A DNA stretch of 38,611 nt, from IMG/VR virus record IMGVR_UViG_3300049201_000022, positions 1-38,611 of that record; one strand, given 5' to 3'. Shown one piece after another: positions 12,656 through 22,953 of the stretch. Both the position numbers and the translations under genes were made by a program. Each line of letters opens with the position of its first letter. Within the stretch, counting starts at the first letter, position 1. A model generated the notes under the pieces. It worked only from the letters and a program-made list of their open reading frames with translations. It made no database searches and was not told where the DNA came from. Source of the stretch: a virus. Its lineage: Duplodnaviria > Caudoviricetes.

Positions 12656-13182
12656 TGGACTGGAAGGCACTCGTGCAAACCGTGGCGCCGTGGATCGGCA
12701 CCGCGCTGGGCGGACCGCTGGGCGGCGCTGCCGTGTCGGCCATCGGCGACGCGCTGGGCCTGTCGGACAAGAACGAGGCCGCCGTCAAGGCCGCACTGTC
12801 CGGCGCCACGCCCGAGCAGATGCTCGCGCTGAAACAGGCCGACCAGCAGTTCGCGCTGCGCATGCAGGAACTCGGATTCAAGCAGGTGGCCGACATGGAA
12901 GCACTGGCGGCCGGCGACCGCAAGGACGCGCGCGACATGCAGAAAACGACGCGCAGCCCGATACCCGCCGTGCTGTCCATCCTGGTCACCGCCGGCTACT
13001 TCCTCGTGCTGCTGGGCATGATGATGGGCTGGTTGAAGGCCGGCGACAGCCAGGCGTTGCTGCTCATGCTCGGGTCGCTGTCCACCGGCTGGGGCGTCGT
13101 GATGGCCTTCTGGTTCGGCACCACGCGCGGCAGCGAGGTCAAGACCGAACTGCTGGCGCAGGCGCCAGCGCTGGGCAAATAG
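12652..13182 (+). CDS. Holin (3TM/GTA-holin-like)
   Basis: ATGA overlap; APWIGTALGGPLGG, DRKDAR, two C-terminal TMs, FWFG motif. Confidence 0.7.
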   Translation: MMDWKALVQTVAPWIGTALGGPLGGAAVSAIGDALGLSDKNEAAVKAALSGATPEQMLALKQADQQFALRMQELGFKQVADMEALAAGDRKDARDMQKTTRSPIPAVLSILVTAGYFLVLLGMMMGWLKAGDSQALLLMLGSLSTGWGVVMAFWFGTTRGSEVKTELLAQAPALGK

Positions 13183-13228
13183 CCGGACGGGCTCAAGAAC
13201 CGAGTCTGCCGGCGGTAGTATTGGCACC

Positions 13229-13498
13229 ATGCCGATGACGCCGGAAGAACGCCGCAAGCACCTCACGCCCGAACTGCGCAAACACTTCGACAGCGTCGGC
13301 CCGGCGCTGGTCAGTTTCGATGTCAGCAACCACAACTACCGCGCACCCGAGAAGCACAACGCCGCGTTGGCCTGGCTGGAAGAGCAGCGGCGCCGCGAGG
13401 ACCGAAGGTGGTGGACCATGGTTGTGCTGACCACGCTGGGCGTACTGTTCGCCGGCATCGCCGCGTGGTTCGCCTACCTGGCCATCCCTGGCAAATAG
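13229..13498 (+). CDS. Small single-pass membrane protein next to attP
   Basis: C-terminal TM WWTMVVLTTLGVLFAGIAAWFAYLAI; TAGTAT 7 nt before ATG. Confidence 0.65.
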   Translation: MPMTPEERRKHLTPELRKHFDSVGPALVSFDVSNHNYRAPEKHNAALAWLEEQRRREDRRWWTMVVLTTLGVLFAGIAAWFAYLAIPGK

Positions 13499-13740
13499 CT
13501 GCGTTATTCGCGGGCGGGCCGTCGTTGCGAATCAACGACTTGCAGCGCCCGAATAGCGGCGGGAATTACGCAGTTGCGCGCCGGTAAGGTCTTGATAGAA
13601 TTGATGAATCCGTTGACGCGCCGGACAGGCTACGAACCAGGGGGTCGTGGGTTCGAATCCTGCCGGGCGCGCCATCGAATCAAGGACTTACGGTGTCCTG
13701 CTTCTGGACACTGCGTAATTCAGCGGATTCGCGTAATTCA
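13499..13740. mobile_element. attP: tRNA-derived core with arm-type repeats and IHF sites
   Basis: (CT)GCGTWATTC at 13499-13509, 13563-13573 (inverted), 13711-13721, 13731-13739; WATCAANNNNTTR at 13530-13542 and 13678-13690. Confidence 0.85.
13628..13674 (+). pseudogene. 3' fragment of tRNA-Arg(ACG), att core
   Basis: GG-CTACGAA-CC anticodon loop, GGTTCGAATCC T-arm, ends GCGCGCCA; no 5' half upstream. Confidence 0.9.
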
Positions 13741-14225
13741 ATTTGCTCATCTGCCTCATTTTTGGGCATGTGGCAGACGTTGTATTCCGGCGCGAAACGG
13801 GCGATGTAAAGCTGCTCAAGCCGATCCATCACCAGCCCCTCCGCGGCTTGGCACCGAACCCCATCGAACTGCATCGGGCCGCCGTAGTGGCTGGCCACTC
13901 GTGCGGCCAGTGCGTTCGACTTGCCCACGTAGACGATGACGGGGCCGCGCAGCAGGAAGTACACGCCTGTGCGCGGAATTTCCGGCAGGCGCACGATGTT
14001 CGCGGCCGGTACAAGCATGTGGCCCACGTCGGCCGTAGCTTGCAGTTCACTGCCCTTGCGTTGGAATTCCGCGAGCGCGGAGTCGTAGGTTGCGCCCAGC
14101 CGGTATCGCCGCTTGAAGTTCCAGAACATTTCAAGGCCGCGCGGCACCTGGTAGAAGTAGGCGCCATGCTCAAACGACCAGCGGTCGGGTAAGTCAATGT
14201 TCTCGGGTCTACGTGGCCGCGGCAT
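13680..14225 (-). CDS. Integrase arm-binding-domain / GIY-YIG nuclease fusion
   Basis: First 50 aa are 31/50 identical to the integrase N-terminus; GVY..YVG..R..H..E..YN motif set. Confidence 0.8.
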   Translation of the reverse strand: MPRPRRPENIDLPDRWSFEHGAYFYQVPRGLEMFWNFKRRYRLGATYDSALAEFQRKGSELQATADVGHMLVPAANIVRLPEIPRTGVYFLLRGPVIVYVGKSNALAARVASHYGGPMQFDGVRCQAAEGLVMDRLEQLYIARFAPEYNVCHMPKNEADEQIELRESAELRSVQKQDTVSP

Positions 14226-14797
14226 CACGCACCACCTTCCTGGTCGGCCTCGACCTCGATGTCCACGCGCTCGGTGCGGCGCCCGCTGTGGAACTCGGCC
14301 ACGCCAGGCGGCACCGTGTCGTCAATGACGACCGGCAGACCGAGCAGCGTTTTCCCGGTGGGCTGTCGGGCGGCCACCGCGCCGCCGTCCACGAGCCGAT
14401 GCACGTGCAGCTTGCTGCGCCACACCGGTTCGTACAGCGCCTTGTCGCGCTCGCATTCCTCGGCCGTGCTGCGCACCGGGTACTGCAGGACGCGGTGGTC
14501 GTTCTCTTCGAAGAACAGGCCATAGGCCAGCGTGGCCGGCGGCGTGTAGCTGCCCATCCGGTCCAGCGTGTCGCGGATCAGCTTCGCGCACTCGCCGTCG
14601 GCCGGCAGGTTGTTGAGCGCGTCCAGCAGCGCGTTGCGAATTTCCTGGCGCTCGACGCCGTGCGGCGTGGCCATGGCCGGATTCGTGCCGGTGGTGCGCT
14701 CGGTCTTCACAGCCCCGCAGACCTGGCAGCAGTGATGCAGCGGGTGCTCGTCATCGCGCACGTAGCGGTGCGCGCATTCCTTCCTGTTGTCATCCAT
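14225..14797 (-). CDS. Hypothetical protein (N-terminal Cys/His cluster)
   Basis: Same strand as int; stop overlaps next start (GTGATG). Confidence 0.6.
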   Translation of the reverse strand: MDDNRKECAHRYVRDDEHPLHHCCQVCGAVKTERTTGTNPAMATPHGVERQEIRNALLDALNNLPADGECAKLIRDTLDRMGSYTPPATLAYGLFFEENDHRVLQYPVRSTAEECERDKALYEPVWRSKLHVHRLVDGGAVAARQPTGKTLLGLPVVIDDTVPPGVAEFHSGRRTERVDIEVEADQEGGA

Positions 14798-14809
14798 ACA
14801 TCCAACCCC

Positions 14810-15901
14810 TTATCTCAATGGGCGAACCCTTTCCGCCTTCCGCCGGTAAATGCGGTCGGTCGTCCTGCTATCGGCATGAGCGAGCAGCGCCCGCGCATGT
14901 TCTAAAGTCTCGGCATCGCTCGCGCACTTCGCACGCAGGTCGTGCTCGGTGAAGCGCTCGGTGACCTTCGTTTCCTTGAGCACGCGGTCCATGAACCGCT
15001 GCCACATCGAGTCCCACCCGTGGGCCTCGCCGGTTGCTTCGTCCACGTAGCCGGCGCCGTCGCGGTTGCAGAACAACCAGGGCGAGATATGCACCGGCCG
15101 CGCGGCCTCGGCCATCTTCACCGCCTCGCGCAGCTCGGGCGTCCACTCGTAGATGGTCCGCTTGCCGGTGCTGCCCGCCGTCTTGCGCCGCTGAACGTGG
15201 ATGCCGTCGTCCTGGAACTGGCGGCGGGGTTCGAGCCGAAGCAGGTCGCCGCGCGACAGGCCGGTGAGCAGCTTGATGCGCATGTACGCCTGGATGGCCA
15301 GCACGCTGCCCTTCTTGCGCCGGCTGGCCAGCGCCAGGCACTCGACCACTTCCCAATCCTCGACGTAGCGGTCGCGCGGCTTCTCGCCCTCGAGCCGCAC
15401 CTCACCCTTGAACGGGTGCCGGTCGATGTAGCCCCACTCCACGGCCTTCGTGAACGCGTGCGACAGCACCTCGACCTCGCGGTGCGCGACGGTCACGCCG
15501 CCCACCAGCACGCCCTTCTCGTTGCGCTTCTTTACCCGCCGCTTATCCACATACTTGTACACAAGCTGCGGGCGCATTTCGTCCAGCCGCAGCGCGCCGA
15601 ACACGCCGCGAAGCTGGGCCACGTGCCGCACGTTCTCGAGCCGCGTCTTCGGCGCCTTGGTCGGCAGCACCTCGAGCGCGTACCGGTCCAGCAGGTCGGC
15701 GATGGTCTTCGCGTTCTCGTTGCGCCCTACCCGCTCGGCCCACACCTTGTAGGCTTCCGGCAACGTGGTGCCCAGCCGGAAACGCCGCTTGCCGTCCCAC
15801 AACGATTCGAGGCCGCGCGGCACCGAATAGAAGTAGGCGCCATGTTCGTGCGCCCACCCTTTCGGCAGGTGCTTGTTGTGGGCGCTACGCGGGCGGGGCA
15901 T
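14810..15901 (-). CDS. int: Tyrosine integrase
   Basis: HDLR, LLAH, terminal Y (DRIYRR), KT motif; near tRNA-derived att core. Confidence 0.92.
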   Translation of the reverse strand: MPRPRSAHNKHLPKGWAHEHGAYFYSVPRGLESLWDGKRRFRLGTTLPEAYKVWAERVGRNENAKTIADLLDRYALEVLPTKAPKTRLENVRHVAQLRGVFGALRLDEMRPQLVYKYVDKRRVKKRNEKGVLVGGVTVAHREVEVLSHAFTKAVEWGYIDRHPFKGEVRLEGEKPRDRYVEDWEVVECLALASRRKKGSVLAIQAYMRIKLLTGLSRGDLLRLEPRRQFQDDGIHVQRRKTAGSTGKRTIYEWTPELREAVKMAEAARPVHISPWLFCNRDGAGYVDEATGEAHGWDSMWQRFMDRVLKETKVTERFTEHDLRAKCASDAETLEHARALLAHADSRTTDRIYRRKAERVRPLR

Positions 15902-16129
15902 TTAGACCTTGGACCAATCCGGTTCGTTGCTAACGCTTCGCATTTTAGCATTTGCTAACGCGCCGTCAAGCAATTTTTCCACATGCGAACGCAGCACGAC
16001 GAGCGAGCCGTCGGGCCGGGGCCGGTGCTCGATGCCCATTGCGGCGAGCACCTGGCGCTGTGATGCACGGCGGGTACGCCGCGTCAACTGGACGAGTTCG
16101 TCATCGGTGAGGAACATTCCCGAATCCAT
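15902..16129 (-). CDS. Excisionase-like protein (DUF4224-like)
   Basis: FLTDDEL..LT...Q...L..MGI....RPDG..VV pattern; immediately upstream of int. Confidence 0.75.
   Translation of the reverse strand: MDSGMFLTDDELVQLTRRTRRASQRQVLAAMGIEHRPRPDGSLVVLRSHVEKLLDGALANAKMRSVSNEPDWSKV
15942..15969 (-). promoter_or_regulatory. Putative int promoter inside xis, overlapped by operator TTAGCATTTGCTAA
   Basis: TTGACG-16-TAAAAT with TGn extension; palindromic operator at 15945-15958. Confidence 0.6.
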
Positions 16130-16632
16130 GCTGCTGTAATGTTCAGCGCCTCCGACACGGTGTCGTTCACCCTGGCGCGTGACTTGGTGCGCCGCTCGGC
16201 GCTCGTGGTCGGTACTGGCTTAGGCGCGTCGGGCTGACTGCCCAGCGCGTACACACGCACCGGTTGCGGCCCGTTCCTCGAGTTGCGCGGGACCGCGACC
16301 CAGCGCACGACGTACACCTGTTTGGGCTTCGCCTGCCGCAGTTCCTTCACCAGCAGGTTCGTGCGGCAGCGCGACAGGCCGAGCAGCCGCGCGAGCTGCT
16401 GCGTGGTTCGGTCGTTGTCGGCCAGCAATTCAAGGATGCGTGCCTTGCTGCCGTGGGCGGCCTTCGCCTTCTCGCGCGCGATGGCTGCATTGCGCCGGGC
16501 GCGCTTCGCCGCGCTGTGGCGCCCGGCCGCTTCGATCATGCACGCCTTGCACTGCGCGAACGGCGAGCCGTTCGTGCGCAGGTAGAAGCCGTCGGCCAAC
16601 TTAGGCACGCCGCAGCGCGTGCACGTACGCAT
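16084..16632 (-). CDS. Zn-finger plus winged-HTH DNA-binding protein
   Basis: CTRC...CKAC; ILELL..T..QLA.LLGLS HTH; TAATG coupling to upstream gene. Confidence 0.6.
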   Translation of the reverse strand: MRTCTRCGVPKLADGFYLRTNGSPFAQCKACMIEAAGRHSAAKRARRNAAIAREKAKAAHGSKARILELLADNDRTTQQLARLLGLSRCRTNLLVKELRQAKPKQVYVVRWVAVPRNSRNGPQPVRVYALGSQPDAPKPVPTTSAERRTKSRARVNDTVSEALNITAAWIRECSSPMTNSSS

Positions 16633-22699: not shown

Positions 22700-22953
22700 T
22701 TCCCGAGCTTTCCGCCTATCCCACTTACGGGCTTCCGACGGTCGAGTCGCTGCACCTCTGTTCTGAAGCGACGCGGGCAGAGGTGCGAAACCAGCTCGGG
22801 CTTTTTCCCGCGCAGCCAACCGCGGGCGGTTTGAGGAAGCCCCCGCTATTCGGTGGTGGGGCCAGGGATCGAACCTGGAACACGAGGGGGCGGCCCTCGG
22901 CGTCTACCAGTTGCACCACCCCACCACCGAATAGCCCTGCCCCGTGGGGCAGG
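22700..22953 (-). ncRNA. Structured intergenic RNA: tRNA-like cloverleaf plus crossing helices
   Basis: Cloverleaf at 22925-22854 in a 17-bp perfect stem; further 6-9 bp complementary pairs over 22702-22842. Confidence 0.65.

Follow-up and report, generated by a model that had tools for sequence, protein, structure and literature searches.

A GIY-YIG nuclease with a lambda-type integrase arm-binding head beside the attachment site of a temperate phage, a predicted att-arm-guided endonuclease

T4-like phages have free-standing homing endonucleases of the GIY-YIG type (I-TevI/Seg). The phage protein described here, in which an integrase-type N-terminal domain (the head) is fused to a GIY-YIG domain, resembles them in its modular combination of nuclease and DNA-binding domain, in being optional among close relatives, and in lying beside its presumed target, but it is much shorter, the order of its domains is reversed (head first), and it would be aimed at a non-coding site of recombination whose repeats are tunable instead of at a conserved essential gene. 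Nucleases that act at origins with borrowed specificity are already known from Odn (Gp88), encoded by vibriophage ICP1, and its analogues in coliphages; in Odn, a RepA_N head directs the cut at the origin of a rival (PMC8263062, PMC10448857). Like Odn, the fusion begins with a DNA-binding head that derives from a site-specific protein of a mobile element and continues with a nuclease of the GIY-YIG superfamily; unlike Odn, it has the arm-binding domain of an integrase and not RepA_N as its head, a UvrC-like GIY-YIG nuclease without a T5orf172 match in the Pfam scans made, a temperate carrier with the same kind of site beside the gene, and att arms instead of an origin as its presumed target. 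Destruction of an attP is known from Adi of ICP1, which works through a hijacked recombinase (PMC9638900), and a phage protein leading to the loss of a rival element's attP is also what is proposed for the fusion, but Adi itself is described there as no nuclease and as acting through the serine recombinase of the rival. HNH-AP2 (IPA-HNH) homing endonucleases use a related fold (PMC10448857, PMC2904766, PMC10111431) and, like the fusion, combine a nuclease with a DNA-binding domain of the AP2/integrase kind, which is small and made up of a sheet and a helix; among the matches listed in the supplement of PMC10448857, one such protein scores weakly for Arm-DNA-bind_4. Their HNH domain is N-terminal and their AP2 domain C-terminal, with no reported link to att, whereas the nuclease of the fusion is of the GIY-YIG type and C-terminal. 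What appears to be new is a nuclease with an integrase arm-binding head, of which no description was found in the literature searched; the search covered few subscription papers and returned none on a nuclease guided by such a domain.

The window, i.e. the whole 38.6-kb virus record analysed here, represents a temperate phage in which the lysis genes are located on one side of attP and xis, int, a 190-aa ORF (orf190), and the fusion gene on the other. Its relevant features are:

13500..13509, minus strand: distal arm site P1, AATAACGC
13530..13542, plus strand: match to the IHF consensus between P1 and P2
13563..13572, plus strand: inverted arm site P2, AATTACGC type
13585..13597, minus strand: match to the IHF consensus on the P side
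13628..13674, plus strand: att core of 47 nt, the 3' part of tRNA-Arg(ACG)
13678..13690, plus strand: match to the IHF consensus on the P' side
13712..13721, minus strand: inner P' arm site of a tandem pair, AATTACGC type, 18 nt from the outer site
13730..13739, minus strand: outer P' arm site of the tandem pair, AATTACGC type
14225..14797, minus strand: orf190, between int and the fusion, homologous to genes in the relatives L205 and L194
14810..15901, minus strand: tyrosine integrase of 363 aa with head residues A17, E19, S26, and R40
15902..16129, minus strand: excisionase (xis; DUF4224, PHROG excisionase)
15942..15969, minus strand: predicted sigma70-like promoter match inside xis, aimed at int and the fusion

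The arm sites are designated P and P' by analogy with lambda. Contigs from other sequencing runs diverge at both ends of the core, namely at 13628, where they continue into the 5' half of the tRNA, and at 13674; for the partial tRNA at the core, no ARAGORN call was obtained. The four arm sites lie within 240 nt at attP and account for four of the seven arm-type matches of the whole window. Three of the window's four IHF-consensus matches fall inside attP, where 0.19 are expected. A terminator-like site was not found in 13150-16400. The promoter match has a counterpart in lambda, whose pI promoter is likewise placed inside xis. Further observations in the window are an 89-aa ORF (13229-13498) that stops at P1 and has a C-terminal membrane segment, a 26-nt inverted repeat (73%, 13502-13558) that covers P1 and an IHF-consensus site, a P1 site unlike the P1 of three relatives, and, at 22852-22925 of the minus strand, a tRNA-Ala (CGC) of the phage, called by ARAGORN.

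The ATG of the fusion gene overlaps the stop of the upstream ORF and is preceded by a purine-rich, RBS-like stretch. Its GC3 is 0.73, compared to 0.85-0.91 for six neighbouring genes, and that of xis is 0.69. The ORF and its parts are:

13680..14225, minus strand: fusion ORF, 181 aa from the ATG, with head, linker, GIY-YIG domain, and read-through tail
14055..14225, minus strand: integrase-type head, residues 1-57, three strands and a C-terminal helix in a predicted lambda-type arm-binding fold
13776..13970, minus strand: GIY-YIG domain, residues 86-150, with G87, Y89, Y99, G101, R109, H113, E137, and N149
13680..13775, minus strand: non-conserved tail, residues 151-181, read through resident att-arm DNA

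The initial annotation had interpreted this product, encoded in a xis-int operon, as an integrase arm-binding domain fused to a GIY-YIG nuclease. Both domain assignments were upheld by profile searches and fold models, and so was the xis-int neighbourhood, with the qualification that orf190 separates int from the fusion. The N-terminus aligns without gaps to that of the window integrase (31/50 identical residues, BLASTP E 4e-19), the 38-nt stretch of DNA similarity noticed originally is part of a real, longer repeat in the same register (137 nt at 74%, 14089-14225 vs 15765-15901), and the nuclease residues that had been read from the translation are those listed above, which supply the GxY-(9-11)-YxG hairpin, the Arg and His of helix 1, the metal-binding Glu, and the distal Asn of the GIY-YIG superfamily. 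Identity of the fusion head to the head of the neighbouring integrase amounts to 54-63%. The window protein alone matched no Pfam family and, in PHROG, only phrog_1111 (endonuclease, E 0.0016). PF01541 was matched by six of the first seven aligned family members, and PF10544 (T5orf172) was not among the Pfam matches listed for members. A profile of 32 members matched the UvrC GIY-YIG domain with an E value of 3.9e-5, the Arg, Glu, and Asn residues being aligned, and the top nine Foldseek matches of the model of the C-terminal half (pLDDT of the domain 62-82) were UvrC GIY-YIG domains, the best with E 2.6e-4 and a TM score of 0.67 over the target.

The head was modelled from 107 sequences with a pLDDT of 88 (a first model from seven sequences gave about 40) and is predicted to consist of three strands and a C-terminal helix. 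Its top structural matches are to the lambda Int arm-binding domain (PDB 1KJK, 2WCC), but here the head is followed by a nuclease instead of the core-binding and recombinase domains. The top six Foldseek matches were lambda Int N-domain entries, with the isolated arm-binding domain first (E 0.28, TM 0.54-0.62), and VIA-align placed 2WCC first (Z 4.5, rmsd 3.1, 51 aligned residues, 31% identity), followed by lambda Int and Tn916 Int; these fold scores for the modelled head are low, as is usual for a small domain. The arm-binding models of Pfam (PF09003 and kin) matched none of the 107 heads and miss the integrases of the family too, and the head profile retrieved over 150 integrase N-termini. 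Weak matches of this profile to WW domains in PDB sequences (best E 0.007) were taken as chance. Within the reach of profile and fold prediction, the protein is confirmed as a lambda-type integrase arm-binding head joined to a GIY-YIG domain in which all catalytic positions are present. An att-arm-guided nuclease, as predicted originally, is retained as its most likely function, together with the tie to attP, and we would give about an even chance, from sequence and models, to the more specific reading that it is a free-standing, att-arm-guided endonuclease of the homing type.

Proteins combining this head with a GIY-YIG domain form 33 clusters at 90% identity (from 83 proteins returned; one cluster is incomplete), and the catalytic positions are conserved in 31-32 of the 32 full-length members, at a mean domain identity of 48%. 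A full-length fusion was found in none of 80 metagenome loci, 49 genome loci, 401 genomes of one family, and 50,697 annotated phages. In the window, the 3' end of the gene covers, as described originally, both arm repeats and most of an IHF-consensus site, with the stop 5 nt from the core. The encoding of the gene over the attP arm, as it had been put originally, turned out to be incidental: after the catalytic Asn, 30 of the 32 members extend by 4-21 residues to their end and the window protein by 32, and the window tail resembles the resident DNA of a gene-free relative. A functional role for the overlap of ORF and arms was rejected, the tail being non-conserved read-through. The loss of the usual stop, with 32 residues read beyond the Asn, is what might be expected of a one-off, non-functional relic, and an assembly artefact may be considered along with it. 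Both are hardly credible, as intact catalytic residues recur in 33 clusters and segments of the gene with the same sequence as in the window were present in contigs of 8/8 other runs (one with a single-base gap; the studies are perhaps not all independent). At 13769, one low-depth contig of run X10 lacks one base in a T run of the fusion tail, which may be an error.

The head had also been regarded as a duplicate of the head of the window integrase. This origin is not supported: for 33 of 34 fusion heads, the overall nearest relative is another fusion head and not one of the 152 integrase heads, and head identity is correlated with nuclease identity across the family (rho 0.42, reached in 0/2000 permutations). 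A recent copy of the window integrase head was rejected as the origin on account of this closeness and of the covarying halves, and for the same two reasons the fusion is considered to be old. In a FastTree analysis of the 57-aa heads, 25 of the 34 GIY-YIG heads form one clade and the rest three groups, and five heads of Endo VII-type fusions, described below, stand apart. The heads have lost four helix residues that are conserved in integrases (Y51, W54, A55, and R57), and positions 17, 19, 29, and 40 set the window head apart from its two nearest sisters. At the DNA level, the window's own integrase ranks 1 of 138 for codons 1-46 of the window head (0.73), and a local exchange between the two is therefore possible.

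Genomic context was available for 4 of the 33 GIY-YIG clusters, represented by the window and the IMG/VR loci L001-L003; altogether 221 loci were compared, of which 212 have an integrase match. In all four of these loci, gene and tandem P' pair point the same way, and the outer P' site begins 487, 488, 483, and 478 nt past the start codon (window, L001, L002, and L003). The initial annotation had asked whether such genes lie beside att, and in 4/4 loci they do. In L002 and L003 the fusion lies between int and P', and in L001 int is located across the core, yet the fusion still abuts P'. In L003 (6470-6510), the P' pair adjoining the fusion is degenerate and the P-side sites keep the consensus, possibly an escape from the phage's own nuclease. 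Close relatives carry occupied and empty alleles: L205 is gene-free; its integrase is 87% identical to that of the window, its core and P' arms are those of the window, and several of its genes are 75-92% identical at the DNA level. Homology between the two ends at 14238 and restarts about 30 nt outward of P', and the similarity at the junction was equalled in 2/2000 shuffles. Scans with a tandem-arm-pair pattern returned 15 unrelated loci and L205 again. No conserved cut motif or co-conversion tract was shown among the relatives compared, which are too diverged.

The slot between int and P' holds other genes as well. An Endo VII-like ORF occupies the place of the fusion in L194, an HNH gene follows int in L196, and unrelated cargo includes RnlAB, Fic, RelA/SpoT, HNH_2, and others. 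Cargo of a defence-like kind, lying between int and P' and oriented opposite to int, was observed in L006, L088, L137, L158, L129, L070, L048, L126, L132, and L153. In loci of this integrase family, int itself usually extends to P', and some cargo genes end there too. Adjacency to P' alone is weak evidence, because the slot holds unrelated cargo and int or cargo also end at P'. The varied content of the slot, with HNH genes that have no integrase-type head in L174, L194, and L196, would suit a generic mobile nuclease residing in an accessory hot spot, for which a recombined integrase head serves as a loosely specific module and the arms are not the real target. We judge this improbable; the gene of L001 follows the P' pair and not int, and the residues of the heads provide further points on both sides.

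In the integrases of this family, residues of the head covary with bases of the arm, one residue per base, in 65 loci regardless of the tRNA targeted. The comparison started from 100 loci that have a T-loop match; the 65 whose arm pairs agree were used, unresolved pairs and fusion-bearing loci having been left out, and reduced to 40 representatives in 25 clusters. Among the 40 representatives, the top covarying columns were residues 26, 17, 40, and 19 for arm bases 4, 5, 6, and 7 (z of 11.9 for base 4, 7.7 for base 5, 7.9 for base 6, and 6.6 for base 7, from shuffles that ignore relatedness). At residue 26, Q occurs with A at base 4 in 30/30 cases, R with G in 4/4, and S or M with T in 3/3; E or D at residue 19 occurs with G in 8/8, and residue 8 tracks base 4, too. 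A hand code derived from these pairs fits 55 of the 65 training loci and predicted 4/4, 4/4, 3/4, 3/4, and 2/4 bases for five held-out integrases, one of the 4/4 scores being that of the window integrase, whose near-twin L205 was in training. By this code the window integrase reads AATTACGC, as is seen at both P' sites and at P2. The fusion head, with S17 (a residue outside the training set), E19, Q26, and R40, is predicted to prefer AATA(A/G)CGC, one base off three of the phage's own four arm sites; P1 (AATAACGC) is the only site in the window attP that matches this preference. Tandem P' pairs of the predicted type are present in at least 14 other loci associated with several tRNAs:

L043, L044, L123, L124: AATA(A/G)CGC-type tandem pairs, first group
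L006, L048, L055, L068, L070, L072, L126, L129, L130, L132: AATA(A/G)CGC-type tandem pairs, second group
L124, L006: attP of the AATAACGC/AATAGCGC type

A target confined to elements that share the tRNA-Arg, as was proposed originally, is not supported, since the predicted specificity follows the arm type, which is common to several tRNA targets.

The presence of the predicted target as tandem P' pairs in other elements would also be understandable if the fusion were a domesticated anti-competitor nuclease like Odn, which destroys the attP (or attL/attR) of rivals, phages or islands, so that its carrier wins the site or the cell, self-copying being unneeded. A precedent is Odn, in which a nuclease of the GIY-YIG superfamily with a captured RepA_N head cuts the origin of a rival (PMC8263062), and the changes that separate the window head from its nearest two sisters (residues 17, 19, 29, and 40) are such as an arms race would produce. 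We nevertheless consider it unlikely, as such a weapon need not adjoin the carrier's own P' pair, yet 4/4 do, as the heads track the sheet of the resident integrase in 3/5 loci, and as the gene is patchy among close relatives. The homing-type reading and the Odn-like one share the same binding and cutting and differ in the pay-off.

How closely the heads follow their own integrases was assessed by ranking the latter among 152, with rare residues weighted. Over all positions, the ranks were 5, 3, 52, 2, and 138 (window, L001, L002, L003, and L175), and over residues 13-44, a range picked after the alignments had been viewed, they were 1, 1, 104, 1, and 122; non-cognate heads placed these integrases in the top five in 0, 0, 0, 5, and 0 of 38 cases. 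Whether each head is closest to its neighbouring integrase had been asked originally; overall it is not, 33/34 heads being nearer to other fusion heads, and the DNA-reading sheet follows the neighbouring integrase in 3/5 loci. The heads of L002 and L175, which are unlike their own integrases (ranks 104 and 122 of 152), favour the generic mobile nuclease. Against it stand the rare sheet residues shared with the resident integrase in L001 and L003, where the codons of the heads are no nearer to the own integrase than background, and the head of L002, which has different residues and is yet predicted to recognise the arm type of most of its own sites. The head of L001 equals its integrase at all four code positions and lies beside its own matching P' pair, and because of this, discrimination by the head between own and foreign arms is not general.

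The match of the sheet to the resident integrase in 3/5 loci, the predicted transcript shared with int, and the fit of the window P1 to the predicted preference could likewise be accommodated by a regulator of the carrier's own recombination that competes for arm sites or nicks att junctions and thereby biases integration versus excision. Such a role is very improbable: simple competition needs none of the catalytic residues that are kept in 31-32 of 32 members, the helix residues Y51, W54, A55, and R57 have been lost, the fusion gene is absent beside most integrases of the family, and the same head is also attached to a second, unrelated nuclease. The homing-type reading is itself weakened by P1, because this site of the carrier matches the predicted preference of its own fusion.

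The second nuclease is of the Endo VII/HNH-like kind, which carries the same head in 17 clusters among the best 120 matches (named according to PHROG) and a weaker head match in 10 more clusters, again among the best 120. In F-CphI, Endo VII motifs serve in homing (PMC6083498). Other arm domains of integrases are attached to this nuclease family as well: among 54 of its proteins picked by eye, PF12167 was found in three, and PF09003 was above the cut-off in one and below it in three. In L175 such a fusion is placed like the GIY-YIG fusions, ending at P'. Endo VII-like nucleases also bear excisionase-type heads (DUF4224, HTH_17), and excisionase-headed GIY-YIG proteins occur as well. The fusions of these two kinds are:

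L175:6001-6624: Endo VII-type fusion; proteins P0053, P0064, P0069, and P0084-P0096 likewise
L002:6753-7220 and L247:1972-2490: excisionase-headed (DUF4224-like or HTH_17/AlpA-like) GIY-YIG; protein P0081 likewise

The excisionase-headed genes of L002 and L247 begin just past the arm opposite P' and are directed away from the core. In lambda, the Xis sites lie on the arm opposite P'. The attP of L002 is flanked by both kinds of fusion, integrase-headed and excisionase-headed. That GIY-YIG and Endo VII-like domains are found with many heads can be counted in favour of the generic mobile nuclease. A broader proposal is a conflict of temperate phages over attachment sites, in which two unrelated nuclease classes would repeatedly capture integrase (and excisionase) heads, lie against the arm that they recognise, and readjust the code of four residues so as to cut near-cognate attP and spare their own; this is possible and somewhat doubtful. 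If true, integration modules would be exchanged and arm sequences diversified under the pressure of this conflict, which would also offer a natural, readable protein-DNA code for the recognition of lambda-type arms.

In the homing-type reading, the fusion would be co-transcribed with int from the promoter-like site inside xis, and its head would bind a pair of tandem arms in the genome of a co-infecting phage or of a resident prophage. The nuclease might then make its nick or cut on the outward side, at one to four helical turns from these arms, a distance taken from junction positions only, and repair from the carrier genome, via the homology on the int side and the conserved arms and core, would copy the gene in beside P'. 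The carrier may be protected by the replacement of the outward flank with the gene's own 3' end, and in the window phage additionally by Q26 and E8 of the head (S26 and H8 in the integrase), which are predicted to favour A where three of the four arm sites have T. If the fusion is active, it would explain mosaic integration modules and diversifying arms, and competition for tRNA integration sites would become directly testable. The covariation predicts a target for each member of the family and thus a testable recognition code for a DNA-binding domain of 57 residues.

Two further observations were made in the loci compared. An integrase of the window's family is split over two frames in L248 (2440-3494), and ORFs of about 200 aa with a C-terminal GIY-YIG domain behind an unassigned N-terminal one are located directly upstream of xis in elements at tRNA-Ser (L001:8008-8634, L019:1388-1990, and L034:5671-6282).
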